A DNA stretch of 40,165 nucleotides from Treponema sp. (GCA_031267675.1 JAIRYT010000011.1:1-40165), one strand, 5' to 3'; numbered from the stretch's first letter, positions 2,295-38,628 are shown. Made by a program: numbers and translations. Notes: generated by a model not told the origin, from the sequence alone.

Positions 2295-2999
2295 ATGACC
2301 GATAAACTATACATTGTTATTCCTGCCTATAACGAAGAACTGAATATTAAAGCTGTCGCTGTAGAGTGGCATGCTGTTGCAAGAAAAATTGGCAAAGAAT
2401 CGCGCCTTGTCATTATTGATGACGGGAGCAGGGATTCGACGTTTAAATTAATTGCCGGGCTCACGAAGGAGCTGCCCCAATTGATTGCGCTGACAAAGCA
2501 AAACAGCGGGCACGGTGACACAATATTATATGGATATAATTACGCGCTTGAACACGGGGCCGATTTTATCTTTCAAACTGATTCCGATGGTCAAACAGTG
2601 CCAAACGAATTTTGGCGGTTTTGGGAGCAGAGAGGAAAATACGATGCTATTATTGGATACCGAAACCAGCGCAAGGATGGAATCGCGCGTATAGTGGTTA
2701 CAAAATTATTAAAAATGCTCCTATGGTGTATTTTTGGTGTACGCGTTGTGGATGCAAATACGCCATTTCGCCTTATGGAACGCGGCGTATTGTCAAAATA
2801 TTTGCCAAAGGTCCCGCCTCATTTTAATTTGTCAAATGTCATACTGACTGTTTGTTTTGTAAAATATGAAAACCCCCTGTTCCTTCCGATTAGTTTCCAC
2901 CAGCGCAGGGCGGGGGTAAATTCCATAAATCTAAAACGGATTATAAAAATTGGAAAGCGGGCTGTCAGGGATTTTTGGCGGATAAAAAAAAGTCTGTGA
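2295..2999 (+). CDS. Family 2 glycosyltransferase (polyprenyl-phosphate hexose synthase, GtrB/DPM1-like, lacking the C-terminal TM anchor)
   Basis: 'YIVIPAYNEELNI' and 'IDDGSRDST' GT2 motifs; AAGGAGG RBS 10 nt upstream of the ATG. Confidence 0.8.
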   Translation: MTDKLYIVIPAYNEELNIKAVAVEWHAVARKIGKESRLVIIDDGSRDSTFKLIAGLTKELPQLIALTKQNSGHGDTILYGYNYALEHGADFIFQTDSDGQTVPNEFWRFWEQRGKYDAIIGYRNQRKDGIARIVVTKLLKMLLWCIFGVRVVDANTPFRLMERGVLSKYLPKVPPHFNLSNVILTVCFVKYENPLFLPISFHQRRAGVNSINLKRIIKIGKRAVRDFWRIKKSL

Positions 3000-3047
3000 C
3001 ATTTTTACCCTTCCCGGTAAATACGGTCATCAAAGCTTAACCTTAAT

Positions 3048-3085
3048 GCCGCATAAGCGGCTTCCCATACAGCCGGAGCGTTTGG
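3048..3085. repeat. GC-rich hairpin 'gccgcataagcggc' plus 'acagccggagcgtttgg' variant of the inter-cassette repeat family, between convergent genes
   Basis: Sequence similarity to 'cgcataacagg' and 'acagccggaacgttatg' copies elsewhere in the window. Confidence 0.4.
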
Positions 3086-3104
3086 CGACGTGGGGCCCGC
3101 GTCA

Positions 3105-4391
3105 TTATTGTATTTTCTGCACCAATGCCCTCCCAAAACATTTTTTACCATTTTCATACGGAAAGTATTGTGTATCCTGAATAATTTTATATCCCTTTTC
3201 CAATAACCCGTTTAATATTGGCCTGGCGGATACCGCAAATGGTTTTTTATAATCATTTGGGATATAATTATTATCCACTACCAATATTTTTGAATCGTCA
3301 TATTTTTTATATTTTTCCGGTATTTCTTTTAACGGAATTATTTTTAAATTCCTGTATTTGGGCCTGTCTTTTATGGAAAAATTTGTATACCAATGCCCTG
3401 CAGCCCTTGTAAGTTCTTTCTTTGGCGTTAAAAACCAATCCACTTCGTTATAACCCGCCCATACTTTATTGTTTTTGAAATATGGAATAAACGCTGGTGT
3501 TATGGGGTTTGTTATATTGGAAATAATTAAAAAATTTTTTCCACTGTTAATGGTGAGGTCCCAATAGTCAGCTGCTCTTGAAAACGGCGGGTTTGTACAT
3601 ACTATATCCGTCTCTTTATTCAATATTTTCAAAGACAGCGGATGGTCAAAACTTCCCGTATAGCCTTCGGGATGCTCTTTGAATTCATTAAAGCCGTCTT
3701 TGGTAAATATATATCCTTTTGCGCCTTGATTGAACAAATCAACTACGCCACTGTAATGAGTACATATAAGTTTTTTCAATCCGAGTTCATTGAAATTTTT
3801 TATAAAATACAATGAAAACGCAGATGTATTTTTTTCGTTATCATCAACTGCGTCATCACAGTTGCAAAATACAACTTTATTCTTCCAAATTCTTTTATTA
3901 TACATTGTCAATTCTTTTTCAACATCTTCATACCTGGTATAAAATTCGTCATTATTTATTTTTTGAGCCTTTTGCAGTATTTCTTTTCGGGAAATCCCGC
4001 GTTCTTCAAGAGACGGAGTTGTTTTTTTTACTATTTTTACCATTTCTTTTTTATCTTCGGTTTTAATGAATATTTCTCTTACATACAGTTTGTGTAACTT
4101 TATAAAATTTGCATAATGCTGAAACAAGGGAGTATTATAAAAATATATTTCCTTGCTCTTTTCTTCTCGAAGAGCAGCAAATTTCTCTTTAACAGCATTT
4201 TCAACCTGTGCCATATCTTTTACTTCACAAGTAAATAAATACTGGTAAATGTTTTCTTTGGATTTACCGGTCATATTATTATATTCTTTCAAACGCCGTT
4301 CAAGGTCATTTGTCTTGCCAATTTTGCATTTTGAAGGCTCTAATGATGCCTGAACTATATAAATGTACTCCTTTTTCTTGTCTTTTGCCAA
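3105..4391 (-). CDS. Fusion protein: N-terminal T5orf172/GIY-YIG-like domain + C-terminal EcoRI-methylase-family N6-adenine DNA methyltransferase domain
   Basis: N-terminus 'EYIYIVQ...CKIGKTNDLERRLKEYN' is a GIY-YIG/T5orf172-like block. C-terminal half has blocks 'DEFYTRY', 'KVVFCNCDD', 'LGLKKLI', 'DIVCTNPPFS' (motif IV NPPF) and 'FLIISN', which match blocks of the M.EcoRI family as I remember them (from memory, not searched). Confidence 0.6.
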   Translation of the reverse strand: MAKDKKKEYIYIVQASLEPSKCKIGKTNDLERRLKEYNNMTGKSKENIYQYLFTCEVKDMAQVENAVKEKFAALREEKSKEIYFYNTPLFQHYANFIKLHKLYVREIFIKTEDKKEMVKIVKKTTPSLEERGISRKEILQKAQKINNDEFYTRYEDVEKELTMYNKRIWKNKVVFCNCDDAVDDNEKNTSAFSLYFIKNFNELGLKKLICTHYSGVVDLFNQGAKGYIFTKDGFNEFKEHPEGYTGSFDHPLSLKILNKETDIVCTNPPFSRAADYWDLTINSGKNFLIISNITNPITPAFIPYFKNNKVWAGYNEVDWFLTPKKELTRAAGHWYTNFSIKDRPKYRNLKIIPLKEIPEKYKKYDDSKILVVDNNYIPNDYKKPFAVSARPILNGLLEKGYKIIQDTQYFPYENGKKCFGRALVQKIQ

Positions 4392-4529
4392 TTTATGCCT
4401 CCTTCGATGATTTTAAACCATGCTAGAATATATTTTAAAAAAAGTCAAGCCCTCACTGCATGGTTTTTTATATGATCTGACGCAATGATGCGCAGCCGAC
4501 CCAGGCAAACGGAACCGCCGTAAAGCGAA

Positions 4530-4551
4530 GCGCAAACAGACCTGTTATGCG
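4530..4551. repeat. 22-bp near-palindromic site 'GCGCAAAC-AGACCT-GTTATGCG' (inter-cassette repeat family, copy A) within a GC-rich ~110-bp element
   Basis: Imperfect inverted arms around a 6-bp centre; the flanking ~70 bp ('gcgcagccgacccagg...ggaaccgcc...gtaaa') aligns with the copy at 38978-39060 in reverse orientation. Confidence 0.7.
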
Positions 4552-4580
4552 ATGTTTTTTCTTTTCATTATTTTTTTATC

Positions 4581-4943
4581 CTAAGGAAAATGTTCTGGAT
4601 AATATTCAACATATTGTTTTTCAGATACAATCCACGAGCCATTATATCCATTTCCACCATGCCCCGGGAATATATATAATGCATTCTTTTCTCCTCCTTT
4701 TATTTCGTTGATATAATTATCTGAAACCCAATTTCCTGTTTCCCCCAAATATCTGTTGCCATTCATTCTTGCATGACATTCCTCCCTTGCAATTTCCAAC
4801 GAAAACCCTATACCATTCAATGCGCTATTAATATCGTTTCCGTTTGTATCATTATCTTCAAAGATAATATTATTTGGTTTAACATTTTTATTTGAACACG
4901 ATAATAAAATTGTCATAAATAAAACACTAAATATCCATTTCAT
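4581..4943 (-). CDS. Small lipoprotein of unknown function
   Basis: 120 aa; signal peptide with lipobox 'LLSC'; AT-rich. Confidence 0.5.
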   Translation of the reverse strand: MKWIFSVLFMTILLSCSNKNVKPNNIIFEDNDTNGNDINSALNGIGFSLEIAREECHARMNGNRYLGETGNWVSDNYINEIKGGEKNALYIFPGHGGNGYNGSWIVSEKQYVEYYPEHFP

Positions 4944-5150
4944 ACCTGTTATATTAACATAGCGGTGTTATTTTGTCAATACTTTTAGAAAAATGGCACA
5001 TCCTGGTGTATACCAGCCCCCGGACAGGGACTTTGCGTTGCAAAGGCCGCCCGCCTCCAATCAACTGGAATGAGGCGCGGGAAGGAGCGTTCCCCGGCAA
5101 AGCCGGGGCTCGATTGACCTGACCAAAATGGAGGCAAGCCGTCGTAAGGC

Positions 5151-5172
5151 GGGCAAACAGTCCTGTTAGGCG
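5151..5172. repeat. 22-bp site 'GGGCAAAC-AGTCCT-GTTAGGCG' (inter-cassette repeat family, copy B) within a GC-rich ~200-bp element
   Basis: Same arm-centre-arm geometry as copy A; contains GTTAGGC (=GTTRRRY) and, on the other strand, GCCTAAC (=RYYYAAC). Confidence 0.7.
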
Positions 5173-5239
5173 AAAGGGTTAAAATCTATTGCAAAAATAG
5201 TATACATATAGTATAAAGGACAAAGGGGAATTTTAATCA

Positions 5240-6286
5240 ATGTATGATATTGCCATTATTGGGTTAGGGCCCGCCGGTGCTACATTAGCAAGATTATTGG
5301 ATAAAAAGTACAATGTAATTGCGATAGATCGAAAAAATTCCAAATTTAATAAATGTTGCGGGGGATTATTATCGCCGGATGCGCAAAAAATACTTGCCCA
5401 GTTTGACATCTGCCTGCCAAAAGACGTTTTGGTAAACCCGCAAATATTTTCTGTAAAAACGATTGATTTTGATAATAATATTGTTAAATATTATCAAAGG
5501 TTTTATATGAACATGAACAGGAAAAAGTTTGATAATTTTCTGATTTCGTTAATTTCGAATAATATAGAGATTTGCAGTAATAGCATTTGTGAAGAAATAG
5601 AAAAAGAAAATGATATATACTGTTTTACAATAAAAACAAATGGAATAAAACGAAAAGAACGGGCTAAAATTATAATTGGCGCAGATGGCGCAAATTCTAT
5701 AGTCAGGAATACATTCTATAAAAAGAATAAAATTAATAGATATGTATCCATTCAAGAATGGTATAAAGACGATATAAATTCACCTTTTTATTCCTGTATT
5801 TTTGATAAAGAGATAACAGATTCATATTGCTGGACAATATCAAAGGACAATTGTTTTATAATCGGGGGAGCATTTCCAATGAAAAATAGCAGTAAAAAAT
5901 TTGAAAAATTAAAGGAAAAAATAAAAAATACCGGCATAAATTTTGAAAAATTGATAAAACGGGAAGGTTGTTTGGTCAATCTGAATAAAGGACTTATGAG
6001 TACGTGTACGGGAAAAAACGGGGCCTATTTAACAGGAGAGGCGGCGGGAATGATTAGTCCAAGTTCTTTGGAAGGAATTAGTTATTCCATGGAGAGCGCA
6101 AAAATATTGGCAGAAATAATAAATGAAAGTTTAACGAATATAGGACAAAAATATTTCTTGAGGACATTGGGAATTAGAATGAAATTAATTTTAAAAATAT
6201 TCAAAATGCCGTTTATGTATAACAGGTATTTGAGGAAAATAGTTATGATAAGCGGAATAAAAACAATAAAACGCCCCTTCGTATAA
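5240..6286 (+). CDS. FAD-dependent oxidoreductase (geranylgeranyl-reductase/monooxygenase-like)
   Basis: N-terminal 'YDIAIIGLGPAGATLA' Rossmann GxGxxG; 'GADGANSIVR' FAD-binding block; AT-rich. Confidence 0.75.
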   Translation: MYDIAIIGLGPAGATLARLLDKKYNVIAIDRKNSKFNKCCGGLLSPDAQKILAQFDICLPKDVLVNPQIFSVKTIDFDNNIVKYYQRFYMNMNRKKFDNFLISLISNNIEICSNSICEEIEKENDIYCFTIKTNGIKRKERAKIIIGADGANSIVRNTFYKKNKINRYVSIQEWYKDDINSPFYSCIFDKEITDSYCWTISKDNCFIIGGAFPMKNSSKKFEKLKEKIKNTGINFEKLIKREGCLVNLNKGLMSTCTGKNGAYLTGEAAGMISPSSLEGISYSMESAKILAEIINESLTNIGQKYFLRTLGIRMKLILKIFKMPFMYNRYLRKIVMISGIKTIKRPFV

Positions 6287-6308
6287 ACAGTCAGGAACGT
6301 TATATGCG
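6283..6308. repeat. Short variant of the inter-cassette motif 'ATAAACAGTCAGGAACGTTATATGCG', overlapping the stop of the oxidoreductase gene
   Basis: Contains both 'ATAAACAGTC' (type-1-like) and 'AGGAACGTTAT' (type-2-like) halves; followed by hairpin 'tgtcgttaaataacgaca' at ~6326-6345. Confidence 0.5.
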
Positions 6309-6325
6309 GTATCCGCCTGCCCATT

Positions 6326-7243
6326 TTACCTGTCGTTAAATAACGACAATTCATTCTGTCTTTTTTTAGAATTATATTTTACTTCTACCTGCTTCTCAAA
6401 AGACTCTAAAGACTCCCGGTGATATTTTAAAAACCATTCTTTATGATTATTTAAATAGGTATTACGAATATCATCATCATTAAGATCGTTTGGAACACGC
6501 TCCATTCTTTCATCAATACTATCAAATCCCATAAATGGTTCTGCGAGTCTATTTTTTGTTAACTCGATATAATCAGGATTTAACTCTATACCTATACAAT
6601 TTCTATTTAATTGCTGGCATGCCCTTAAAGTCGTTCCACTTCCAGAAAAAGGATCAACAATCAAATCGCCCTCTTTACTTGAAGCTAAAACCATACGTTC
6701 AATTAAGCCTTCTGGTTTTTGGGTGGGATGATTTTGCCGGTTCGCGTTACAATAATGTACATGCGAAAACATCCAAACGTCCCCGGGATTGGCTCCGCGC
6801 ATATTATTTATCGATCGGTAATATTTTTGGGGAACTCTGATGTTATCCAAATAGAAATTAAAGCGTTTGGACTTCGTAAACATTAAAATATCATCGTGCC
6901 TCGGTGAAAACCCCTTTGTTTTACCCAAGCCCTGCGTATAATGCCATGTAATCCAGCTATTAAAAATAAAATGGTATTCTCGTTCTAAAATGGTATACAG
7001 ATAGGATATAAAACGCACTCCCATAAATATATATATAGAACCGGTGTTTTTTAATACGCGATGAGACTCTTTTAACCAATTGCGCGAAAATACCAAATAC
7101 TCGTCAAATTCTTTTGAATCATTATTATTACCGTAATCCTTTCCAAGATTATAAGGAGGATCTGCGATAATAACATCTACTGTATTTGCATCAATATCTT
7201 TTAGACGCTGTATAGCATCGCCTCGCAGTATATTGAGTTTCAT
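6326..7243 (-). CDS. Beta-class N6-adenine (or N4-cytosine) DNA methyltransferase of a type II R-M system
   Basis: Motif IV 'IIADPPYN' near the N-terminus and motif I 'VDPFSGSGTT' near the C-terminus (beta-class order); start overlaps the upstream gene. Confidence 0.85.
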   Translation of the reverse strand: MKLNILRGDAIQRLKDIDANTVDVIIADPPYNLGKDYGNNNDSKEFDEYLVFSRNWLKESHRVLKNTGSIYIFMGVRFISYLYTILEREYHFIFNSWITWHYTQGLGKTKGFSPRHDDILMFTKSKRFNFYLDNIRVPQKYYRSINNMRGANPGDVWMFSHVHYCNANRQNHPTQKPEGLIERMVLASSKEGDLIVDPFSGSGTTLRACQQLNRNCIGIELNPDYIELTKNRLAEPFMGFDSIDERMERVPNDLNDDDIRNTYLNNHKEWFLKYHRESLESFEKQVEVKYNSKKRQNELSLFNDR

Positions 7244-8025
7244 TATTCATCCTTTATCCAATGATTTTGTTTTGCGTAGCGCAGCCATTCCGAAAAACCC
7301 TTGCGCGAGGCGATACATTTTTCATCTAATAATTGACAAAACTCCCATGCGGTTCTTATTTCGCGGGAAACATAGTGAATATCCCTTATTTGCAATTGCC
7401 CGCTGCCCAATGCGGGATTATAACTAATATCATTTTTACCAAGAAATTTTAAATCATATGCATTAAAATCAACTACTTCCATTACACCAAACATCATATT
7501 AGATGCATTGTCTCTATGGCTATAGACCTTATGCTTAATAGATAAAATAATAAACAAATAATCCGGGTCTTTTACATATTCTGTGCGTATCCGTACAAAC
7601 GATGTAATATTAGGAGATTTTCCACTGCCGTCAATATCGTTGCTTGTTGCTTTAACATCAACAAAACCCGTAACAGAACTTTGTCGCTTTCGCTGCCGCT
7701 TAAATTGCAGAATAATATCCGCCATATTAAGGCGTTCGCCTGCTTCAACATTAATGAGTTGATATTTATTATTTTTATCTTCCAAGATGTCGTTGAATAT
7801 TTCAAATGCCCATGCTTCAACAAATGGCCCTGCTATTTTATTGATATTTTCCATAGGCAATCCAAGTTTTAAATTAGTGTTGATAACGATTTTATTTTTA
7901 TAATTCCGTATTGAATCATTAACAATAGCCTCAATTTGCCCAACAACAAAGTTAGAGCAATCCTGGTAATCTTCAGATTCAGCGGGTGTCTTAAAATCAA
8001 GTGTCGAATATTCCATATTTGGCAT
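7243..8025 (-). CDS. Putative type II restriction endonuclease partnered with the adjacent methyltransferase
   Basis: 260 aa ORF immediately upstream of and 1-nt overlapping the MTase on the same strand; candidate PD-(D/E/S)xK-like segment 'DPDYLFIILSIKHK'. No family assignment possible by eye. Confidence 0.45.
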   Translation of the reverse strand: MPNMEYSTLDFKTPAESEDYQDCSNFVVGQIEAIVNDSIRNYKNKIVINTNLKLGLPMENINKIAGPFVEAWAFEIFNDILEDKNNKYQLINVEAGERLNMADIILQFKRQRKRQSSVTGFVDVKATSNDIDGSGKSPNITSFVRIRTEYVKDPDYLFIILSIKHKVYSHRDNASNMMFGVMEVVDFNAYDLKFLGKNDISYNPALGSGQLQIRDIHYVSREIRTAWEFCQLLDEKCIASRKGFSEWLRYAKQNHWIKDE

Positions 8026-8163
8026 AAAATCAACCTCTTTGCATGATATTTTATAACATCAAAAAAAATCAAGAGGGTTCCGTATGGTCCGCTTTGATAA
8101 AAAACGCCGACTGCGGAATGGGGCATCGGAACACCGGCGTTTTAATTACGCGAAGCGCAATCT

Positions 8164-8180
8164 TGCCGGAACGTTATTCT
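8164..8180. repeat. 'GCCGGAACGTTATTCTG' type-2 variant of the inter-cassette motif at the island-core boundary
   Basis: Matches 'ccggaacgttatgtg' at 39134-39148 and 'caggaacgttatatg' at 6290-6304. Confidence 0.5.
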
Positions 8181-8917
8181 GCAAGAAATATTACAGAAAT
8201 TTGGGTAGAAATTTCCAATTCACCCGTTGGCAGTATTGAACCGGGAACATCCTCCGCTTCTCTACCACCGGCAAAACCCCTTGCGGCATAAAGTACCATA
8301 TCGCGCGGAGAAATTTGCCGGGCTCCGTCTTCGGAAATATTCAGGACTTTAACAATTTTTAATCCGGAAAGTTCCGCGTATTGCTCCGCTTTCGCCAGGG
8401 CTTTTTGATACGCCGCCTCTCTGGACTTTGCCAGTAATTCCGTATCATCTTTAATTCCAAAATGAATTTGATTTAACCTGACATTGTCCAGTTGTGTAAT
8501 TTTGTCCAATATTTCCGGCGCTTTTTCAACATTTACGCCTATAGTATCAACGGAAAACACTATGGTTTGTTCAACTTTTTGACCGGTCAAAACCCTTCTA
8601 TTGCCTCTGTATTCATATTCAGAATTAAACCGTAAAGATGCTGTTCGTATATTTTTATCCTCAATTCCGGCTTCATTCAATATGTCCAATAATTGTTTTG
8701 CAATCTTGTTTACTTCAATTTGAGCCTGCCGTGTTGTTCGCGCGACATTACTCAGGGAAACGCTCATTTGAACCATGTCGGGCTGTGCCAATATTGTACC
8801 AGTTCCGGTAACAGTAATACTGCTTTGCCCATAAACATTTGTTGTATTAAAGCTCAATAATACAAGAAAAGCAAACAGGATAAAAGCTGCATGCAGAGTA
8901 CCTTTATTTTTCTTCAT
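8174..8917 (-). CDS. SIMPL-domain (DUF541/BP26-like) periplasmic protein
   Basis: Signal peptide; 'SITVTGTGTILAQPDMVQMSVSL' resembles the SIMPL/YggE family N-terminal block. Confidence 0.7.
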   Translation of the reverse strand: MKKNKGTLHAAFILFAFLVLLSFNTTNVYGQSSITVTGTGTILAQPDMVQMSVSLSNVARTTRQAQIEVNKIAKQLLDILNEAGIEDKNIRTASLRFNSEYEYRGNRRVLTGQKVEQTIVFSVDTIGVNVEKAPEILDKITQLDNVRLNQIHFGIKDDTELLAKSREAAYQKALAKAEQYAELSGLKIVKVLNISEDGARQISPRDMVLYAARGFAGGREAEDVPGSILPTGELEISTQISVIFLAE

Positions 8918-8940: not shown

Positions 8941-10599
8941 TTATTCTTCCTTCTTCTCGTCCTTTCGTTCCTTCTTCTGCGGTTCCGGCTTTTTTTCTGC
9001 CGCGCCGTCTTTAGCGTCCCTCTCCAGCGTACCCAGGAAGCCGGGCAGATCAAGGCCCGCCTGCTGGGCGATATCGTGAAGAGGTGGCAGGGTTTTTACC
9101 AGATTGCGTACAAAATTCGCCGTGGAACTGCTGTCGCCGTTGGGGCTGTCCCACACGGTAATTTTATCAATCTTGATATTCTTGATTGCTTCGGTCTGCA
9201 TTTTAACAATGTCTTCAAGTTTTTCAACCAAAAGCAGCGTGGCGGCGCTTTTTGCGTCGCTGTTCGCGGCTTTGACAAGCGTTTGATACCCTGTGGCTTT
9301 TGCGTCAAGAACTTTTCTAATTCCTTCCGCTTCGGCCGATTTAACCAGAAGAATCGCGTCGGCTTCGCCCTGGGCAAGACGCCGCTGTTGTTCCGCCTGC
9401 GCGGCCGCGTCAATTTCGCGCTTCCGCTTTTCGATCTCGCGGGGCACCACTTCTTCCGCCTCAAGACGGCGCTGTTCGGCAAGCGCCTTTGCCTTTTGTA
9501 TTTCGGCAAGGGCCTGCTGCTGGGCTACTTCGCCCCGCATCGAAGCCTCGGCCTCGCGCTCAAACAGCGTGGCGTTGGATACGGCAATTTCGGCCTTTGA
9601 GGTATTTTCGCCTTCAACGGCCTTTGCGTTATAATCGGCTGTTTGTATACGCTGTTCCCTGGAAAATTCGGCTACCTTAACCTGTTGTTCCTTGTTAAGT
9701 TCCGCTATTCGTACCTGTTCGTCCTTGGAATATTGCGCCAGTTGAATCTGCTGGTCCCGGTTGTATTCCGCCGTTTTTACCTGCTGTTCCTTGCTGTACT
9801 CGGCTATTTGTACCTGTTTTTCCTTATCCAGTTCCGCAACCTGAACCTGCTGATCCTTGTTAAACTGGGCGATAAGAACTTCCTGTTCCTTGGCGAATTC
9901 GGCTACCTTAACCTGCTGCTGTTTACGCGCGTCGGCCTCGCCAATGGCCCCCAGTTTATCCTGTTCCGCCACATCGACCTTGGCCTGGTTGATTGCCGTA
10001 AGGGCGGCCTTTTTACCGATGCTTTCGATGTATCCCGACTCGTCGGTTATGTCGGTAACGTTTACGTTGATAAGACAAAGCCCAATCTTGTCCAGTTCTA
10101 TGTCGATATTTTTTCGTATCGCGTCAAGAAATCGCTCGCGGTCCTGGTTGATTTGTTCAATAGTAAGGGACGCGACCGTCAGGCGGAGCTGCCCAAGGAT
10201 GATTTCGGTCGCCATGGATTCCACTGTTTCACGGTCAAGCCCAAGCAGGCGCACCGCGGCTGAATTCATGCTTTCGCTTTCTGTGGCAATGGCGACGGTA
10301 AACGTGCTGGGCACATTTATGCGGATATTCTGGAGCGACAACGCCCCCTTAAGGGGAATGTTGATGGTCATCGGCGTAAGCTCCAGATACTTGTAATCCT
10401 GGATTAACGGCCAGACAAAGGCGCCGCCTCCGTGCATACAGCGCGACGACCTGCCCCCGCCGACTTTTCCAAATATAACCAAAATCTGGTTGGAGGCGCA
10501 GCGTTTATAACGGCTTGCAAGAAATATGACAAGCACAAAAATAAAAACCGCCAAAAAAAGAATGGCAATCAAAACAAAATCAAAATTCAGCGACATCAT
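8941..10599 (-). CDS. Flotillin (SPFH/band-7 family, FloT/YuaG-like)
   Basis: N-terminal TM helix, SPFH block 'ILVIFGKVGGG', then a long charged heptad/11-mer repeat region ('KEQQVKVAEF' repeats). Confidence 0.8.
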   Translation of the reverse strand: MMSLNFDFVLIAILFLAVFIFVLVIFLASRYKRCASNQILVIFGKVGGGRSSRCMHGGGAFVWPLIQDYKYLELTPMTINIPLKGALSLQNIRINVPSTFTVAIATESESMNSAAVRLLGLDRETVESMATEIILGQLRLTVASLTIEQINQDRERFLDAIRKNIDIELDKIGLCLINVNVTDITDESGYIESIGKKAALTAINQAKVDVAEQDKLGAIGEADARKQQQVKVAEFAKEQEVLIAQFNKDQQVQVAELDKEKQVQIAEYSKEQQVKTAEYNRDQQIQLAQYSKDEQVRIAELNKEQQVKVAEFSREQRIQTADYNAKAVEGENTSKAEIAVSNATLFEREAEASMRGEVAQQQALAEIQKAKALAEQRRLEAEEVVPREIEKRKREIDAAAQAEQQRRLAQGEADAILLVKSAEAEGIRKVLDAKATGYQTLVKAANSDAKSAATLLLVEKLEDIVKMQTEAIKNIKIDKITVWDSPNGDSSSTANFVRNLVKTLPPLHDIAQQAGLDLPGFLGTLERDAKDGAAEKKPEPQKKERKDEKKEE

Positions 10600-11675: not shown

Positions 11676-12814
11676 TGCGGATTATTCCCATTGCGAGCGG
11701 AAAGGGCGGCGTCGGCAAATCCCTGGTAGCGGCTAATCTGGCGGTAGCGTTTGCCCAGGCGGGGCAGCGTGTTGTACTGGCCGACCTTGACCTTGGCGCG
11801 TCGAACCTTCACCTGGTACTTGGGTTTCATTCGCCGTTAAAGGGAATTGGCAGTTTTTTGGCCAACACCAAATCGGATTTTATGAACGTGGTAAACAAAA
11901 CCGATATTCGAGGCCTGCGCTTTATTCCCGGCGATCAGGAAATGCCCGGACTTGCCAACCTTAAAAGCTTTCAGCGCAACGCCCTGATACGCCGCCTGCT
12001 TGCGCTGGAAGCGGATACGGACATTCTTGTTCTTGACCTTGGCGCGGGAACACATCAGTCAATACTTGATTTCTTTCTGCTTTCGGGGCAGGGAATTGTG
12101 GTAAGTTCTCCGGCGGTAACAGCCACCCTTAACGCGTATGTATTTTTAAAAAATACGGTCTTTCGCCTTATGTATACCGTGTTTAAAAAAGGAACAGAGG
12201 CGTTTACCGTTTTGGAAAATATACGCAAAGACAATAAACATTTATACATACCGCAGATTCTTAAAGAAATCGAGCAGGTCGATCCCGAGGCGCACAAAAA
12301 ATTTGTTGACGCGTCAAAACACTTTCACCCCCGGCTTGTCATGAACATGATCGCCAATCCAAAAGACGCCGATGTCGCCATGAAGATACGCCGTTCATGC
12401 GAAGAATATTTGGATATTATGCTGGAACACCTGGGAATAATGTACCATGATACGATTCAGGATACGGCGCTTTCTTCGCGGCTTCCGGTGCTTTTGTACA
12501 AGCCCAATTCGGTAATCGCGCAGTCCATCTATCGCATTGCCGACAAGATCATGCAGGATGATGAAGAAACATTTACCCTTACCAAAGAAGATATTGACGA
12601 CAGCTTTCAGGAGGCGGGCCTTGAAGCGGAAATTGATTTTGAGACAAAAATGGATTATGTAGAAGAACTGCTTCATACCGGGGCGCTTTCGCAGGGGGAT
12701 TTGCTTGAAACCGTAAAGAGCCAGCAGTTTGAATTAGGTAAATTAAAAAAAGAGAATAATTTTCTTAAACATAAACTTGCCCAGGCAATTTCGCGGGATT
12801 TAAACCAGGAGTGA
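11675..12814 (+). CDS. MinD/ParA-family P-loop ATPase (FlhG/MinD-like) with a C-terminal coiled-coil extension
   Basis: 'MRIIPIASGKGGVGKS' deviant Walker A. The ORF track starts upstream at 11606, but the Walker motif places the start at 11675. Confidence 0.75.
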   Translation: MRIIPIASGKGGVGKSLVAANLAVAFAQAGQRVVLADLDLGASNLHLVLGFHSPLKGIGSFLANTKSDFMNVVNKTDIRGLRFIPGDQEMPGLANLKSFQRNALIRRLLALEADTDILVLDLGAGTHQSILDFFLLSGQGIVVSSPAVTATLNAYVFLKNTVFRLMYTVFKKGTEAFTVLENIRKDNKHLYIPQILKEIEQVDPEAHKKFVDASKHFHPRLVMNMIANPKDADVAMKIRRSCEEYLDIMLEHLGIMYHDTIQDTALSSRLPVLLYKPNSVIAQSIYRIADKIMQDDEETFTLTKEDIDDSFQEAGLEAEIDFETKMDYVEELLHTGALSQGDLLETVKSQQFELGKLKKENNFLKHKLAQAISRDLNQE

Positions 12815-12836
12815 CCTAAAGGTCAATCCTCGGCCT
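12808..12836. repeat. 28-nt box 'GGAGTGACCTAAAGGTCAATCCTCGGCC' containing the stop codon of the MinD-like gene; related to the xseA-xseB tandem repeat
   Basis: Near-identical to 'GGAGCGACCTAAAGGTCGATCC(C/T)CGCC' at 32240, 32335 and 32425. Confidence 0.7.
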
Positions 12837-12872
12837 GCCGCCTGAAATATGTTGATATAAAACGGAGGAGCA

Positions 12873-31054: not shown

Positions 31055-32251
31055 GTGAGCCGCCAGAGTTATACCGTTTTTGAAATCACCTCGCTCATTC
31101 AGTCGCAGCTGGAAAACGCTTTTCCTTCTGTTATTGTAGAGGGGGAGCTTTCAAACTTGAGGCCGTCAAGCACCGGACATCTTTATTTTTCGCTCAAAGA
31201 CAGCCGCGCAAAAATAGACGCGGTACTGTTTAAAAGCCGGCTGCCCTTTCTTGGCTTTCAGCCAAAAGACGGCATGCTGGTTCGGACGCGGGGACGTATT
31301 TCGGTGTACGCCCTGCGGGGAAACTACCAGCTTATTGCCGACGACCTTGAACTTGCCGGCGCGGGCGATATTCTTGCCATGCTGGAAGAACGCAAACGCC
31401 TTCTTGCCGCCGAAGGACTTTTTGATGAAGGGCGAAAAAAGCCAATTCCGCGCTTTCCCGAAACTGTCGGCATTGTCAGTTCACCAACCGGCGCGGCGGT
31501 GCAGGATATTCTTACCATTCTGCAAAGGCGCGCCCGGGGCATACATGTTGTAATTTTGGGCGCTCCGGTTCAGGGCGCGGAGGCGGCGGGAATTATCGCC
31601 GCGCGGATTAAACAGGCCAACCAGTGGCATCTTGCCGATGTCCTTATTGTCGGGCGCGGCGGCGGTTCGCTGGAAGATCTTCTTCCCTTTTCCGAAGAAC
31701 AGGTGGTGCGCGCAATTGCGGAATCCGCGATTCCCGTGGTAAGCGCCGTAGGCCACGAAATTGACAACGCGCTTTCTGATTTGGCCGCCGATCTCCGCGC
31801 GCCTACGCCTTCGGCCGCCGCAGAACTGGTAAGCGAAAAACGCGCGGAAACATTTGACCGCATTGTCGAAATAAGAAACGAAATGGTTTCCTGCCTTGAG
31901 CGGCGCATAGAACGCGTCCGTCTTTTGGCAAAACCATTTTGCGCGGAAGATTTGGAATACCGCATTAGAACCATACTACAGCCGCGCCTGATACGTCTTG
32001 ATGACGCAAAAGACGCCCTGCTCACCGGCCTTAAAACAATTACCGCTTCCCTAAGCCGCCGCCTTGAGCTGGCAAAGACCGGGCTTGAAGCGGGAAACCC
32101 CCGGGCCATTCTGGAGCGGGGATTTTCGGTAGTGGTAAACGAAGCAAGCGGAAAAACGCTGCGTACCACGAACGACTGTACGGAAGGCGACAGGCTGCGA
32201 ATCAGGCTTCTTGACGGATCTGTGTACGCGGTCACGGAGGGAGCGACCTAA
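31055..32251 (+). CDS. xseA: Exodeoxyribonuclease VII large subunit
   Basis: OB-fold N-terminus 'SVIVEGELSNLRPSSTGHLYFSLKD' and 'GRGGGSLEDL' block; GTG start. Confidence 0.85.
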   Translation: MSRQSYTVFEITSLIQSQLENAFPSVIVEGELSNLRPSSTGHLYFSLKDSRAKIDAVLFKSRLPFLGFQPKDGMLVRTRGRISVYALRGNYQLIADDLELAGAGDILAMLEERKRLLAAEGLFDEGRKKPIPRFPETVGIVSSPTGAAVQDILTILQRRARGIHVVILGAPVQGAEAAGIIAARIKQANQWHLADVLIVGRGGGSLEDLLPFSEEQVVRAIAESAIPVVSAVGHEIDNALSDLAADLRAPTPSAAAELVSEKRAETFDRIVEIRNEMVSCLERRIERVRLLAKPFCAEDLEYRIRTILQPRLIRLDDAKDALLTGLKTITASLSRRLELAKTGLEAGNPRAILERGFSVVVNEASGKTLRTTNDCTEGDRLRIRLLDGSVYAVTEGAT

Positions 32252-32497
32252 AGGTCGATCCCCGCCAAGCCGCTATGCGGCTTGCGAATTTGTTCGCTGG
32301 TGCAGCCTGCCGGTAAACCGGACGGGCTTGCAGGGAGCGACCTAAAGGTCGATCCTCGCCAAGCCGCTGCCTTGCGAATTTATCTGCTGGCGCAGCCTTG
32401 CCGGTAAACCGGACAGGCTTGCGGGGAGCGGCCTAAAGATCGATCCCCGGCTATGCTATGCCGCGCATAGTTGCGAATTTATCGGCTGGGAGGGTAC
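32237..32497. repeat. Three tandem copies (96, 90 and ~72 bp) of a hairpin-rich GC repeat between xseA and xseB
   Basis: Units begin with 'GGGAGCGACCTAAAGGTCGATCC'. The first unit contains the xseA stop; the last contains the xseB RBS. Internal hairpins 'caagccgc-tat-gcggcttg' and 'ccggtaaaccgg'. Confidence 0.85.
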
Positions 32498-32731: not shown

Positions 32732-34504
32732 ATGGCAATGATACGAATATTAAAAAGCGAGGAAGCAAAAAAAATTGCCGCCGGAGAGGTCATTGACCGT
32801 CCGGCCGCGCTGGTGCGGGAATTTATCGACAACGCAATTGACTCGGGGGCGTCGTCAATAGAAGTTTCCATTGCCAACGGGGGAAGCAGCAAGGTCGAAG
32901 TAATTGACAACGGCTCCGGCATGGACAAAACCGATCTTGAACTTTGCATCCTGACCCACGCGACAAGTAAAATTGAAACCCTTGACGATTTATCCAAAAG
33001 CCATACCCTGGGTTTTCGCGGCGAAGCGCTGGCTGCGGCAGCCGCCGTATCAACGCTGGAAATACTTTCCAGCGTTGACGGCCGCGAAGCATACCTCCTT
33101 ACCGCCGCGGACGGTAAAAGCAAAATTATTCAAAGCCGCCGCGTGCGCGGAACCAGCATACGCGCGTTTGGCCTGTTTGACGCCATACCCGCCCGCAAAC
33201 GCTTTCTTAAACGCGAAGCAAGCGAAGCGGCAATCTGTAAACAAATTTTTATGGAAAAGGCGCTGGCGTTTCCCTCGATAAATTTTCGTTTTATACAGGA
33301 CGGCAAATTAAAAATAAACGCGCTTCCCCATACAGAAGAAAACATGGCTGTTACAAAACGCTTTGGCGAACTTATTCTTTCAAACCAGGCGTTTCTTCAC
33401 GAAATCCATGCGGCGGGCAGCGGCTTTACCGTATGCATAGTCACCGGAGGCCCCGAGCTGTTCCGGCAGGATCGCAGGGGGCAGTATATTTTTGCCAACA
33501 GGCGGCGCATTCAGGATTTTTCGCTTATGCAGGCGCTGGAATACGGCCTTGCCGGATTTTTCCCCAACGGCTCGCACGCCATTGGCGCGGTTTTTGTAGA
33601 TGTTGATCCCGCGCTCGCCGATTTTAACATTCATCCGGCAAAACGGGAGGTACGCTTTGCCTGCGCGTCCGAAATCCATCATGCGATAACATCGGCGCTC
33701 CGCGATTATACCAGACGCAGCGGGCTTGCGATAAGTTCTACCACTGCGGACGAGGCGCTTGAAAACAGCCCGGCCTTTGCCTTTGACGGGGACCGGCACA
33801 AATCGGGTGAATATGGAGATACGCGCGACCGCCGCGAGGCGCCCGGTTCAAAGGCAGGCGCCGCCGCGCTGGCGGCGCTGCTGGAACGTAAAGATGAATT
33901 CGCGCCCTCACACGCTTTATACGCGGGCGAAACAGAAGCGGAATATAAAACCGGGGAAAGCGTAACCCTTGCCGGCCGCGCGTTTAATTTATTTATTATT
34001 GTTCAAAAGGAAGAACGCCTTTTTTTAATTGATCAGCACGCCGCCCACGAACGCCTGCTTTACAATCATTTTTTGTCAAAACCCATCACCGCGCAGGAAT
34101 TACTCGTTCCCATTCCGTTTGTCACCGAAAGCAAAGAAGACGATGATTTTTTATCCCTTAAAAAAGAAGAATTAAAGCAATTGGGAATTCTGCTTAAAAA
34201 TGAGGGAAACGGAAACTGGCTCATTGACGCGCTCCCCGCCGGCTGGGGGCAGGGAGACACCGTACAGGAGATCCTCGCGCTGCGAAACGCCGGCGGCAAC
34301 ATGACCGAACACTGGGCGGCTACACTCGCCTGCAAGGCGGCAATCAAAGACGGCGGTTACCTTGACGACAGCGCCGCCCTTGCCCTTGCGAAAGAAGCCC
34401 TTGCCCTGCAAAATGACGGCTCACGGCCGCGCTGCCCCCACGGTCGTCCGCTGTGGATGGAACTTACCCGCGACGATCTATTCCGCGCCGTACGCAGAAC
34501 TTGA
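32732..34504 (+). CDS. mutL: DNA mismatch repair protein MutL
   Basis: GHKL ATPase N-terminus 'IAAGEVIDRPAALVREFIDNAIDSGA'; 590 aa. Confidence 0.9.
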   Translation: MAMIRILKSEEAKKIAAGEVIDRPAALVREFIDNAIDSGASSIEVSIANGGSSKVEVIDNGSGMDKTDLELCILTHATSKIETLDDLSKSHTLGFRGEALAAAAAVSTLEILSSVDGREAYLLTAADGKSKIIQSRRVRGTSIRAFGLFDAIPARKRFLKREASEAAICKQIFMEKALAFPSINFRFIQDGKLKINALPHTEENMAVTKRFGELILSNQAFLHEIHAAGSGFTVCIVTGGPELFRQDRRGQYIFANRRRIQDFSLMQALEYGLAGFFPNGSHAIGAVFVDVDPALADFNIHPAKREVRFACASEIHHAITSALRDYTRRSGLAISSTTADEALENSPAFAFDGDRHKSGEYGDTRDRREAPGSKAGAAALAALLERKDEFAPSHALYAGETEAEYKTGESVTLAGRAFNLFIIVQKEERLFLIDQHAAHERLLYNHFLSKPITAQELLVPIPFVTESKEDDDFLSLKKEELKQLGILLKNEGNGNWLIDALPAGWGQGDTVQEILALRNAGGNMTEHWAATLACKAAIKDGGYLDDSAALALAKEALALQNDGSRPRCPHGRPLWMELTRDDLFRAVRRT

Positions 34505-34518
34505 CAGCGCCGGAAAAA
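34431..34518. repeat. Direct repeat copy 1 (mutL 3' end + TTGACA-18-TAAAAT promoter), partner at 35302-35384
   Basis: ~93% identity to 35302-35384, with a 3-bp indel. Confidence 0.85.
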
Positions 34519-34572: not shown

Positions 34573-34896
34573 ATGGACAAAGCGGTACAAGCGGAACTGG
34601 ACATGCTCAAGGACATTATTGTAAAAACTGTTCCCGTTGAACAAATTCACCTCTTTGGTTCTTATGCCCAAGGGGTCCCACACAGCGATTCAGATTTAGA
34701 TTTATATATTGTTTTGAAAGATAATGCCGAAATGCGGGATATTGACGCTTCTTTAAAAATATACCGCGCAATTGGCGGCAAAAAAAATATGCCGGTAGAT
34801 ATTCTAGTTAGTAAACAAAGCGCCTTTACGCACAGAAAAAACAATCCTACTCTTGAACAAAAAATAGTCAAAGAGGGAATACTGGTGTATGGCTGA
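34573..34896 (+). CDS. Minimal nucleotidyltransferase (MNT) antitoxin of a HEPN/MNT pair
   Basis: 'GSYAQGVPHSDSDLDL' GS...DxD nucleotidyltransferase motif; 8-nt overlap with the downstream HEPN gene; AT-rich. Confidence 0.75.
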   Translation: MDKAVQAELDMLKDIIVKTVPVEQIHLFGSYAQGVPHSDSDLDLYIVLKDNAEMRDIDASLKIYRAIGGKKNMPVDILVSKQSAFTHRKNNPTLEQKIVKEGILVYG

Positions 34897-35341
34897 TATC
34901 GCCCTTGTCAGGCAATGGATTTTTCTTGCGGAAGATGATCTGCGGGTGGCTCAACATCTGGAGCAGACTTTGCGGCCTACACCTTTTGAATTGATATGCT
35001 TCCATTGTCAACAGGCAGCGGAAAAATACCTGAAAAGCTGCCTTGAATTTCATGATGAAATCCCGCCAAAGACCCATGACCTGATTGAACTTAATAACCG
35101 GTGTAAAAAATATAGTGCAGCCTTTGGTGATTTGGCGGAAGCCTGCCAGGCATTAACTGCGTATGGTGTTCAACCACGGTATACCTATGGAATGGAGCTG
35201 GAATATGGAGACACGCTAAAAGCCTTGCAATGTGCAGAAAAGGTAAAAATGTTTTTGCAAAAGGAAGCTCCTGAGTTGTTTAAAAATGACCCTCTAAAGG
35301 AGCTGCCCCCACGGTCGTCCGTGGATGGAACTTACCCGTGA
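34889..35341 (+). CDS. HEPN-domain toxin partner
   Basis: 'AEDDLRVAQHLEQ' ... 'CQQAAEKYLK' ... 'PKTHDL' HEPN blocks; the C-terminal ~15 codons read into the duplicated repeat. Confidence 0.7.
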   Translation: MADIALVRQWIFLAEDDLRVAQHLEQTLRPTPFELICFHCQQAAEKYLKSCLEFHDEIPPKTHDLIELNNRCKKYSAAFGDLAEACQALTAYGVQPRYTYGMELEYGDTLKALQCAEKVKMFLQKEAPELFKNDPLKELPPRSSVDGTYP

Positions 35342-35384
35342 CGATCTGTTCCGCGCCGTACAGAACTTGACAGCGCCGGAAAAA
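35302..35384. repeat. Direct repeat copy 2 (duplicated mutL 3' end + TTGACA-18-TATCAT promoter)
   Basis: See copy 1. Confidence 0.85.
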
Positions 35385-35429
35385 TGGGTGTATCATAGGG
35401 TGCCGGAGATTTGTAAAAGAGGGTGTTTT

Positions 35430-35900
35430 ATGTATCGATTTGTAAAACGTTCTTTCGTTGCGGCGGTGATACTGGTAGCGCTGGTTTTGGTTTTGGGGTC
35501 CTGTGTTTCCTATCCGTTAAATTCGAGAAGCTTTAGCCATAACAGACTTTATTGGGATAAAAACATGCCTGTGGATCAGAGCGTTGAATTATGTTTAATG
35601 CAGGGGCTAACCGCAACCAGTTATAACGGTATACCGGTGAATTGGGGGTTTAAGCCCAATATTTTTCTGCCGACTGGGCAAACCGCTCTTGCTCTGGACC
35701 TTAATTACTGGCTGGGACAGACCAACGTCAAGGGTGATGCTGTTTTTGTCTGGAATTTTAAAGCTGGTGACAGGTTTATCTTGCACGGATGGCGAAGAGA
35801 TGGTAAACTGGGAATTCTATTATGGAACATGGATGTGAAAAAAGAACTGGCCGAGTATGATTTCTTCCCGTTTCCAGAATCAAAAATGATTTTAGAATAG
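35430..35900 (+). CDS. Lipoprotein, paralog family member A1
   Basis: 'MYRFVKRSF...LGSC' lipobox; ~60% identical to the 36433-36900 product. Start placed at the internal ATG; the ORF track's 5' extension (35325) is repeat-derived. Confidence 0.55.
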   Translation: MYRFVKRSFVAAVILVALVLVLGSCVSYPLNSRSFSHNRLYWDKNMPVDQSVELCLMQGLTATSYNGIPVNWGFKPNIFLPTGQTALALDLNYWLGQTNVKGDAVFVWNFKAGDRFILHGWRRDGKLGILLWNMDVKKELAEYDFFPFPESKMILE

Positions 35901-35909
35901 GAGGCCAAA

Positions 35910-36395
35910 ATGAAGAATCGAAAATGTATGTGGGCAAGTGTTGTTCTGTGTGCGGCATTGTTTGCCGGATGTGCCGGTGTTCCCGGTAGGTTTGCCTTTG
36001 ATGAAACGGTACCTGCGGAACAAAGCACTCTGGTCGTTTTTGGCACCGGAATAAGGGTCCTGGAGTACAACGGAATCGACATTAGAACCGGCTGGTATCC
36101 AAACGACAAATGGCGGGTTAATAGAATTACTTTGCCGATTGGCGAAACTACAATACTTTTTAATTACTTTAACACAATTAACATGGGAAATACTGCTTAC
36201 TATGCTCATTCAGAAGATATTACACTTAAGTTTACCTTTGAGGCCGGGAAGGAATACACGGTAGCCAGTTACACAAGGAGGAAAGGCCTCTTTACAAAAG
36301 AATACGGTGTGGCGGTTTGGGAACTTGCTTCACAGACTGGTAGTCCCGCCACTGTTGAAAATGCGGTAAAATTCTGGAAGTTTGGAGAAGTCTGA
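35910..36395 (+). CDS. Lipoprotein, paralog family member B1
   Basis: Lipobox 'LFAGC'; shares 'VLEYNG(I/V)D', 'NRITLP.G.TT' and 'FEAGKEYTVA.Y' blocks with the 36910-37428 product. Confidence 0.55.
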   Translation: MKNRKCMWASVVLCAALFAGCAGVPGRFAFDETVPAEQSTLVVFGTGIRVLEYNGIDIRTGWYPNDKWRVNRITLPIGETTILFNYFNTINMGNTAYYAHSEDITLKFTFEAGKEYTVASYTRRKGLFTKEYGVAVWELASQTGSPATVENAVKFWKFGEV

Positions 36396-36432
36396 CACTA
36401 TCCTTCAATGATTCACAAAAAGGGGGCGTTTT

Positions 36433-36900: not shown

Positions 36901-36909
36901 GGGAAAAAG

Positions 36910-38364: not shown

Positions 38365-38628
38365 ATGACAACAACAATTGTTAAATGGGGAAACAGCCAG
38401 GGAATACGGCTCCCAAAGGTTTTTTTACAAAATATCGATATATCTGAAAATGATATGGTTGATGTTTTGGTAGAAAATGAAGCAATTGTCATTAAAAAAG
38501 TATACGGCAAAAAGCACCGGACCACAAAAGAACGGCTTGCTGATTTCTATGGTCAGAATATAAAAAGTATTACAAAAAAACAAAAAGAAATAGATTGGGG
38601 AAAACCGGCAGGAAAAGAAGTATGGTAA
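38365..38628 (+). CDS. mazE: MazE/PemI-family antitoxin
   Basis: 'VKWGNSQGIRLPK' AbrB/MazE fold start and C-terminal 'IDWGKPAGKEVW'. Confidence 0.8.
   Translation: MTTTIVKWGNSQGIRLPKVFLQNIDISENDMVDVLVENEAIVIKKVYGKKHRTTKERLADFYGQNIKSITKKQKEIDWGKPAGKEVW

Follow-up and report, generated by a model that had tools for sequence, protein, structure and literature searches.

A putative integron-like cassette system of termite-gut Treponema: branched attC-like sites and an array-linked recombinase lacking I2

Integron integrases are defined by the I2 domain, and the cassettes of classical integrons are generally promoterless and expressed from Pc. In Treponema, a "reverse" integron of T. denticola was reportedly described by Coleman in 2004, with an integrase (IntI) that is said in the literature to be canonical. 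That integron is also the subject of PMC3607928 (Wu 2013) and PMC4909258, and integrons have been reported as missing from T. primitia and T. azotonutricium, the two termite-gut isolates that were looked at (PMC3607928). I2 has been described as the novelty by which a Xer-like enzyme became a single-strand recombinase, and is reported to confer single-strand recombination and to be necessary for cassette capture (PMC7790495). Here we analyse a stretch of 40,165 bp (hereafter the window), which is the complete contig JAIRYT010000011.1 of a Treponema sp. metagenome-assembled genome (MAG), and the GC-rich elements that separate AT-rich genes at its two ends. We consider it probable, at roughly three chances in four, that these elements are attC-like sites of an integron-like cassette system abundant in termite-gut Treponema, and that the window carries decayed, recombinase-less clusters of that system. 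What is new is the association, in relatives of the window locus, of long branched attC-like sites with an N-terminally extended Xer/IntI-like recombinase that lacks I2. We found no account of such a system in the searchable literature, although one may exist elsewhere.

A single family of folded elements

A preliminary description of this DNA had recognised two recurrent motifs, a 22-bp palindrome (type 1) and a longer sequence (type 2), and took them for separate kinds of site. Both are in fact the ends of one GC-rich element, 63-228 nt long and mostly ~175-180 nt. Type 1 is the 5′ end and consists of an R″ box (CGCATAAC), a 6-nt spacer and an L″ box (GTATGCG). Reading 3′ from it, full copies terminate after 63-228 nt in CGCATACAGCCGGAACGTTAnnnG or ...CGTCGCATACAGCCGGAACGTTAnnnG, the type-2 motif, which is the 3′ end and consists of an L′ box (CGCATAC), AGCCGGAAC and an R′ box (GTTATGCG). 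The AAC of R″ and the GTT of R′ are invariant, and the inner 4 bp of R″/R′ pair in ~99-100% of 150 copies.

All four palindromes reported in the window were located (Table 1); the core AACAGNCCTGTTA, allowing at most one mismatch, occurs four times in the window against 0.07 expected, a number equalled in 0 of 100 shuffles. Of the four type-2 copies that had been proposed, three contain exact matches to GGAACGTTAT, the heart of that motif (6294, 8168 and 39137, all on the plus strand; 0.07 expected), while the copy at 3069 (CATACAGCCGGAGCGTTTGG) is borderline (nhmmer E=0.07; covariance model (CM) E=0.37). The ~70-bp conserved blocks said to flank the motifs were recovered by the family profile at 4487-4551(-) (E=1e-9), 5020-5171(-) (8e-7), 38979-39149(+) (1e-37) and 39991-40049(+) (3e-10), and are also visible as repeat pairs within the window. 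A contrast in GC content had likewise been claimed, and it holds: e1, e5 and the four well-supported elements lie at 50-61% and the gene units at 24-35%, the collapsed e4 being the exception at only 37%. Two further observations, GTTAGGC/GCCTAAC at the second palindrome and CGCATAA common to the motif and the E. coli dif site, are correct as strings. As for the core geometry of a tyrosine-recombinase site, boundaries of that type stand, but they take the form of 8-6-7 and 7-9-8 arrangements within a covarying folded hairpin and not of a free 28-bp dif-like duplex.

Aligning 18 full copies gave a branched hairpin with compensatory changes in 17 of 29 pairs. A CM was built from this alignment and 150 copies were aligned to it; 96% of cells pair, compared to 74% after shuffling and 31-44% with slid partners, in an alignment that, being fitted to the model, is biased towards the structure, although the independent RNAalifold result and the slid controls concur. 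Compensatory (double) changes occur in 28 of the 39 pairs, and the L″/L′ helix is 97% paired, with 8 of its 11 pairs covarying. By this covariation the element is a selected hairpin. RNAalifold run on all 150 copies lost most helices, owing to the heterogeneous centres, and the CM-based alignment was used instead. In the fold, the base at column 12 is bulged and the GGAAC beside R′ is unpaired. Folding of single sequences had offered an alternative pairing of CGTTCCGG with CCGGAACG, which was set aside because the L″/L′ pairing is what covaries.

The two strands of the element are not equivalent. Among non-Watson-Crick cells of the top strand, A.C outnumbers G.T (51 vs. 20), so that by its wobble-compatible mismatches the bottom strand is the favoured one; it also has the higher predicted stability in 150 of 150 copies. 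These asymmetries, which are not independent of the shared ancestry of the copies, are suggestive of the bottom strand as the folding strand, as in attC sites.

Cassette arrays and the recombinase linked to them

Searches of one genome per GTDB species with the exact 21-mer pattern CGCATAACAGGNCTGTNTGCG matched 52 stretches (with ~4 chance matches by our rough estimate), nearly all from termite-gut MAGs and mostly from Treponema or other Spirochaetaceae. In metagenomes, a 20-mer from the 3′ end was found in at least 120 stretches, nearly all from a handful of Joint Genome Institute (JGI) metagenome projects, several of which are presumably termite-gut samples. The data examined comprise MAGs and short metagenome contigs, from which 186 loci (designated L plus a number) were fetched, with motif matches covered in stretches of 8-20 kb; the CM finds 201 copies in 269 kb of the metagenome loci. 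Bins labelled Prevotellaceae, Azoarcus, Tannerella, Alistipes, Oscillospiraceae and Clostridiales (L002, L010, L019/L020/L036/L043, L024, L037/L039, L004 and L051) contain the exact 21-mer and full elements too, and their isolate names follow the same style as those of the Treponema bins; these copies could reflect cassette transfer across phyla or mis-binned contigs of AT-rich arrays.

In the related loci the copies form arrays of a single orientation, with up to 13 sites per 11 kb. Adjacent elements point the same way in 205 cases and opposite ways in 3, and the occurrence in both orientations that the preliminary description had likened to pdif modules is not the rule in the family. Within helix R, the inner four pairs (TAAC/GTTA) are virtually always formed and the outer four are often unpaired. 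In these arrays the outer four R′ bases of element n complement the R″ of element n+1 and not that of their own element; this is so at 39 of 39 informative junctions, perfectly at 38 (p=4e-12). Such a chimeric R′ is the classical signature of circularly permuted integron cassettes. It places the crossover within GTT(A) of R′, so that the bases that follow belong to the next cassette.

The DNA between sites has the character expected of cassettes. Among the 145 distinct interiors the median length is 728 bp and the GC content 27%. A cassette as a rule carries a single open reading frame (ORF); the longest ORF is co-oriented with the array in 124 interiors, reversed in 2 and absent in 19, and from its stop codon to the next site the median distance is 24 nt. 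Most cassettes in the related loci begin after R′ with a conserved leader of ~25 nt (CAATTGGGGCTAAAATTTG-like).

A tblastn search with an IntI1 query, taken as a lead only, returned one strong match, in L143, which NCBIfam profiles and an alignment with VchIntIA independently confirmed. The gene lies directly upstream of an array and in the same direction, and is followed by ...GGTAAGGGGA/GTTATGCGACATAGTGG... (a slash marks the junction point), a cassette and a full element. Treponema MAGs, along with metagenome contigs from JGI and ENA, encode full-length homologues of its product, 55-91% identical and annotated as XerD or "site-specific integrase". In every fetched context a /GTTAnnCG junction follows the gene by 0.15-1.1 kb and leads into AT-rich cassette DNA. 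This order of gene, junction and cassettes recurs in six lineages (L143, L173/174, L175/176, L177/178, L184/185 and L186), set among the core genes listed in Table 1. Elements of the family were detected downstream in L143, L175/176, L177 and L186, the remaining contigs ending sooner. Moreover, the GGGGAGTTA junction is restricted to three recombinase lineages (L143, L173/174 and L175/176; five loci) and occurs in no locus without the gene.

Among the 186 loci this family is the sole IntI-like match, and it lacks I2. The best NCBIfam profile is NF040815 (XerA/"integron integrase"), at 201-206 bits vs. a cut-off of 220, followed by TIGR02249, which matches in two pieces at 196 vs. 265 bits; XerC and XerD profiles score ~180. 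VchIntIA aligns in two blocks, with IntI residues 180-239, the I2 region, facing only 18 residues, whereas archaeal XerA aligns gap-free. Across 48 members the catalytic residues R, K, H, R, H and Y do not vary. According to an AlphaFold2 model (mean pLDDT 75), residues 1-86 form an N-terminal beta-beta-alpha-beta-beta-alpha-beta-beta domain, which is followed by a disordered linker and a core of the Xer type that lacks a helix at 301-317; Foldseek ranks VchIntIA first and XerA next. In an exhaustive profile search, the 150 best representatives of 50%-identity clusters align colinearly and without insertion, and the ten that were scanned are NF040815-like. The N-terminal domain is conserved in the Treponema family and missing from more distant relatives.

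Phage-type integrases encoded in L009 and L170 were considered as the platform recombinase and rejected, as they belong to prophages. In these two loci (L170, 5976-7427; L009, 3074-4288), related genes for a phage-type integrase, a small protein and a terminase-like protein adjoin cassette arrays, and in L170 no more than the final 25 nt of an element close the array, right beside the phage end; the prophage may use an attC-like site as its attachment site. As a separate observation, the recombinase contigs L173-L186 all end 0.3-3.5 kb past the gene, a 191-kb contig included, and many metagenome contigs start or stop inside an element. The arrays systematically break short-read assemblies.

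The window contig

Core genes at ~52% GC occupy ~8.9-38.3 kb of the window, as seen from Pfam matches and GC content; they include genes for flotillin, a ParA-like protein, FapA, Lgt, OTCase, glycine cleavage, EF-P, XseA, MutL and a HAD protein. Both contig ends are AT-rich and hold the cassette clusters, at 3.0-8.2 kb (perhaps to 8.9 kb) on the left and 38.3-40.2 kb on the right, with ~29 kb of core genes between them (Table 1). No significant copy of the element was found at 8.9-38.3 kb, the copies in the window being confined to the clusters, and the REP-like scatter through core DNA that the preliminary description had held out as the observation that would count against it is not seen within these ~29 kb. 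A gtr-like operon, which it had counted among the cassette units, is not borne out as one.

Table 1. Positions of motifs, elements and genes in the window (letters 1-40,165), and genomic contexts of the recombinase gene in related loci
Feature	Position	Strand	Evidence and remarks
Type-1 copy, oriented alike	4530-4551 reverse complement		CGCATAACAGGTCTGTTTGCGC
Type-1 copy, oriented alike	5151-5172 reverse complement		CGCCTAACAGGACTGTTTGCCC
Type-1 copy	38978-38999		CACATAACAGGACAGTTTACGT
Type-1 copy	39990-40011		CGCATAACAGGCCTGTATGCGT
e1, possible degenerate 3′ end (L′-spacer-R′), ...TCCCATACAGCCGGAGCGTTTGGCG	3043-3088	+	Borderline; nhmmer E=0.073 (profile 137-180), CM E=0.37; ~20 of 25 bases equal the consensus 3′ end; 61% GC
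e2, 5′ 65-79 nt (R″ CGCATAAC, spacer, L″ GTTTGCG, first inner stems)	4487-4551	-	3′ half and R′ deleted; nhmmer E=1e-9 (profile 1-79), 5′-end hidden Markov model (HMM) E=3e-6; pairwise alignment diverges past ~75 nt; starts 30 nt past the stop of ORF 4581-4943
e3, full length, R′ box minus exactly AACGTT (CCAGG^ATGTGCCAT)	4997-5172	-	nhmmer E=8e-7, 5′-end HMM E=0.003; 6-nt deletion seen by global alignment; 61% GC
e4, collapsed; R″-like CGTATAAAC and ...GGAACGTTATATG remain	6280-6306	+	CM 13.3 bits, E=0.013, 159 inner positions deleted; one exact GGAACGTTAT
e5, 3′ part (...CGCAATCTTGCCGGAACGTTATTCTG), then cassette-leader-like sequence	8112-8183	+	Exact GGAACGTTAT at 8168; nhmmer E=1.4, CM E=2.5; R′ and leader conserved (pairwise alignment) despite weak profile scores
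e6, the only intact element, 172 nt	38978-39149	+	CM 146 bits, E=2.5e-38, all 181 model positions; nhmmer E=1e-37; predicted fold; order R″ CACATAAC, AGGACA, L″ GTTTACG, branched centre, L′, AGCCGGAAC, R′ GTTATGTG
e7, intact 5′ 60 nt, centre replaced, degenerate 3′ end (CGTAAACCTCCGGTTTATTTTG)	39991-40135	+	nhmmer E=3e-10 (positions 1-60); CM 20.6 bits, E=1.4e-4 end to end
Left cluster: cassette-like gene, T5orf172/GIY-YIG fused to EcoRI-type adenine methyltransferase	3105-4391	-	Pfam; PADLOC MTase_II 1e-39, PDC-S57; 32% GC
Left cluster: small cassette ORF, 120 amino acids (aa), no family match, co-oriented with e2	4581-4943	-	31% GC
Left cluster: FAD-dependent oxidoreductase-like cassette gene, stop codon within e4	5240-6286	+	Pfam; 31% GC
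Left cluster: type II restriction-modification pair	6326-8025	-	N6/N4 methyltransferase 6326-7243 (Pfam N6_N4_Mtase 7e-66; PADLOC MTase_II 3e-88), restriction enzyme 7243-8025 (PADLOC REase_II 2e-96)
Left cluster (may be part of it): SIMPL/DUF541 gene, stop codon inside R′ of e5	8174-8917	-	Pfam, GC, sequence; 40% GC
Right cluster: MazE/MazF toxin-antitoxin cassette, co-oriented with e6	38365-38954	+	Pfam MazE_antitoxin, PemK_toxin; stop 24 nt before e6
Right cluster: cassette ORF, weak BamE-like C-terminus	39203-39973	+	24% GC; TTGACA-N17-TAAAGT promoter-like box at ~39168-39196
Recombinase context: trkA-trkH	L143, L173/174		
Recombinase context: clpB	L175/176, L184/185		
Recombinase context: HhH-GPD gene	L177/178		
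Recombinase context: uvrA	L186		

In the right cluster, genes and sites are co-oriented as in true arrays. For the left cluster, an impression by eye that the sites were all plus or all minus was dropped, as the profiles give both orientations; the mixture goes with truncated and decayed copies. [quoted passage not shown] The cassette proteins of the window have no close homologue among the 186 fetched loci, which returned distant methyltransferases only. Synteny around the HAD gene is uninformative: the closest relative (95% aa identity) shares the HAD gene alone at the DNA level, and the neighbours in others differ.

Several other features of the contig were noted. On the minus strand, the SIMPL gene reads through leader-like sequence after e5 (8174-8230), its TAA stop lying in the R′ box (GTTATT), and its C-terminus may have been remodelled by the neighbouring cassette junction. 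A 73-nt direct repeat (34446-34518 and 35314-35384, 90-100% identical) is made up of the final ~59 nt of mutL and 14 nt more, and brackets a nucleotidyltransferase/HEPN toxin-antitoxin-like pair (34573-35341); the arrangement resembles that of an insertion by which the mutL 3′ end was duplicated. At 35325-37428 lie four paralogous ORFs in tandem, ~155-190 aa long, without Pfam matches and with shared segments at ~1-kb spacing. A REP-like repeat, GGGAGCGACCTAAAGGTCGATCC..., unrelated to the cassette sites, occurs in core intergenic DNA at 12808-12841, 32240-32273, 32334-32367 and 32425-32458. The flotillin-like gene has a 33-nt periodicity of seven copies at 9652-9918, probably encoding a repetitive coiled-coil segment.

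Alternative readings and comparison with described systems

The anatomy of the sites, their covariation, the permutation of the cassettes and the linkage of arrays to a recombinase gene are all observed, and they bear out part of the preliminary description, mobile cassettes with boundaries of the tyrosine-recombinase type, in the related loci, where arrays are co-oriented, R′ is chimeric and a recombinase gene adjoins. The window itself holds neither the recombinase nor an attI-like junction. Of the three affinities that had been offered (Xer/dif-like, IMEX-like, in the manner of integrative mobile elements exploiting Xer, which insert at the chromosomal dif near the terminus, or integron-like), the integron-like one fits. 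The recombinase that was to be sought turned up in related loci, annotated as Xer-like yet belonging to a dedicated, N-terminally extended family.

In the mechanism that we favour, this XerA/IntI-like recombinase, with its N-terminal domain of ~90 aa and no I2, would use site-by-site exchange within the GTT(A) of R′ to excise cassettes and would insert them at the /GTTAnnCG junction, most likely acting on the folded bottom strand, as in integrons. Whether an I2-less integrase, which either never had the domain or lost it, runs a working platform in termite-gut Treponema we hold to be evenly balanced. There are two routes by which it might do so: a Xer-like enzyme, perhaps by means of its N-terminal domain, could recombine folded single-stranded hairpins without I2, or the arrays could be built by Xer-type exchange on duplex DNA.

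A number of findings weigh against the reading of the elements as attC-like sites of an integron-like system. In the window, no tyrosine recombinase was found among the genes of the whole 40-kb contig, nor was an attI-like junction; e1, e4 and e5 are individually weak profile matches; element orientations in the left cluster are mixed; the rule relating the R′ tail to the next R″ holds for three of four bases at the two testable junctions (e6 to e7 and e3 to e2), vs. four of four in related arrays; and the left boundary of the mazEF unit lacks a GTTA junction. In the family at large, the majority R′ boxes (GTTATGC and GTTATGT) depart by one position from GTTRRRY, which by hand tally fits ~36 of 146 R′ octamers (GTTAGGC, GTTAGAC, GTTAAGC, GTTAAGT and GTTAAAC). 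A TTGAC[AGT] box, counted as a consensus match only, lies in the first 120 nt of 92 of the 145 interiors (63%), and the cassettes thus seem to carry promoters of their own, unlike the promoterless cassettes of classical integrons. Finally, it is the position of its gene that points to the adjacent recombinase as the enzyme that moves the cassettes, and since that recombinase is without the IntI-defining I2, a single-strand mechanism may not apply.

This last point leads to the rival that survives best, though we think it unlikely: that the cassettes are real and are exchanged in the Xer/dif manner on duplex DNA, at the 8-6-7 R″-spacer-L″ palindrome and/or at L′-R′, by two sequential strand exchanges, with the hairpin having some other function, such as termination or the binding of accessory proteins. 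Such an account would suit a recombinase that lacks I2 and is as near to XerA as to IntI, a 5′ end with classic core-site geometry whose left arm shares CGCATAA with dif, and the sites in both orientations and solitary 5′ ends of the window, which are more easily produced by duplex exchange. However, covariation through L″/L′ and three inner helices implies selection on intrastrand pairing, and the strands differ in stability and in wobble-compatible mismatches in a way that speaks for a single folded strand. The simple site at the 3′ end has a spacer of 9 nt, which is unusual in duplex sites; arrays are almost strictly co-oriented; and the crossover maps to the R box alone.

Rather less probable still is that these are ordinary attC sites on which a canonical, I2-bearing IntI acts from elsewhere in the genomes, the adjacent Xer-like gene being a bystander. 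The attC-like anatomy and the chimeric R′ are just as in integrons, CALINs without a neighbouring intI are common (PMC4889954), and our survey covered just the 8-20-kb stretches around motif matches. Against these stand the absence of any IntI-like match other than the I2-less family in the 186 loci, the place of the I2-less gene, which in six lineages lies directly upstream of the first junction amid unrelated core genes, the alignment of the best 150 representative relatives without insertion, and the report of T. primitia and T. azotonutricium as lacking intI (PMC3607928).

It is very unlikely that assembly chimeras at shared repeats explain the window's oddities, namely its truncated sites, its mixed orientation and the presence of cassettes at either end. 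The contig does start and end in cassette DNA, arrays break assemblies everywhere, and the assemblies are apparently short-read ones made with long k-mers (k119 or k141 in contig names). However, the copies in the window share identical runs far shorter than 119-141 nt, neither the loss of 6 nt from e3 nor the collapsed state of e4 is an artefact of repeat junctions, and the core block is colinear coding sequence. Hardly credible, finally, is that the elements are repeats of the repetitive extragenic palindromic (REP), bacterial interspersed mosaic element (BIME) or miniature inverted-repeat transposable element (MITE) type, or terminators, that accumulate after genes, for although they are highly repetitive GC-rich hairpins just past stop codons and cause assembly breaks, such an explanation cannot account for the chimeric R′ at every informative junction without site-specific exchange at R′, the 29-kb core holds a different REP-like family instead of them, and the arrays are linked with a recombinase and with a junction that is unique.

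If the attC-like reading of the elements is correct, every DNA hallmark of integron cassettes, the chimeric R′ included, stands beside a recombinase without I2, and the origin and minimal needs of integron recombination become testable. With a working I2-less integrase, the system would be a natural "proto-integron" or a convergent re-invention, contrary to the view that I2 is indispensable for cassette capture. For the treponemes of the termite gut, it would reverse the integron-free impression left by the two isolates (PMC3607928). Screens based on IntI would see CALINs alone, or nothing. The arrays carry defence and toxin-antitoxin genes, and as they break MAG assemblies, much of the accessory gene content of this guild of symbionts is probably under-recovered.

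Compared with described systems, the DNA side has the defining features of attC sites and cassettes, namely paired terminal boxes R″/R′, an imperfect L″/L′ stem with unpaired bases around a centre of variable length, chimeric R′ boxes and co-oriented arrays with ORFs ending near the site, bar the one-position departure from GTTRRRY in most copies and the promoter-like boxes. A recombinase gene adjoining an attI-like junction and a first cassette, as in a complete integron platform, was found in the six related lineages. The protein side fails the feature that defines IntI.

Like the pdif modules of Acinetobacter, the Treponema system involves a tyrosine recombinase of the Xer type, a short palindromic core with a 6-nt spacer, the CGCATAA of the XerC arm and accessory genes bounded by sites. 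However, pdif sites are 28-bp duplexes (11-6-11) in alternating orientation, served by the housekeeping XerC/D, whereas the Treponema palindrome has arms of 8 and 7 nt, matches dif in CGCATAA alone and forms the end of a ~180-nt covarying hairpin, in arrays that are co-oriented, with mixed orientation in the decayed left cluster of the window only, and the recombinase is dedicated and array-linked. The recombinase superfamily and a short palindrome are all that the two have in common. NF040815 (XerA-type) is the best-scoring family for the recombinase and its 50%-cluster relatives, none of which has I2, and TIGR02249 matches in two pieces; the Treponema proteins differ in scoring just under the NF040815 cut-off and in having an N-terminal domain of their own.

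Both window clusters resemble CALINs (Cury 2016, PMC4889954), defined by two or more attC sites in a span of 4 kb with no integrase in the vicinity: provided that the sites count as attC, the pairs at 4487-4551 and 4997-5172, and at 38978-39149 and 39991-40135, qualify. They differ in that the sites belong to a non-canonical family, that several are truncated or decayed and that the left cluster is mixed. T. denticola's "reverse" integron is alike in belonging to the same genus, in the common direction of integrase and array, and in being chromosomal and strain-variable, whereas its attC sites are canonical, 63-68 nt long (GTCTAAC...GTTAGAT) and without sequence similarity to the termite-gut sites. 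Sedentary chromosomal integrons, such as the V. cholerae superintegron with its ~125-nt V. cholerae repeat (VCR) attC sites, differ from the Treponema system, where the integrase is without I2, carries a further N-terminal domain and points the same way as the array, the branched sites mostly measure ~175-180 nt, and most cassettes have a conserved leader and a TTGACA-like box. They are nevertheless alike in their long arrays, whose cassettes are short, AT-rich and co-oriented, with homogeneous structured repeats between them, in the AAC/GTT of R″/R′, the L″/L′ box with unpaired bases and the chimeric R′, and in a cargo of toxin-antitoxin and defence genes.

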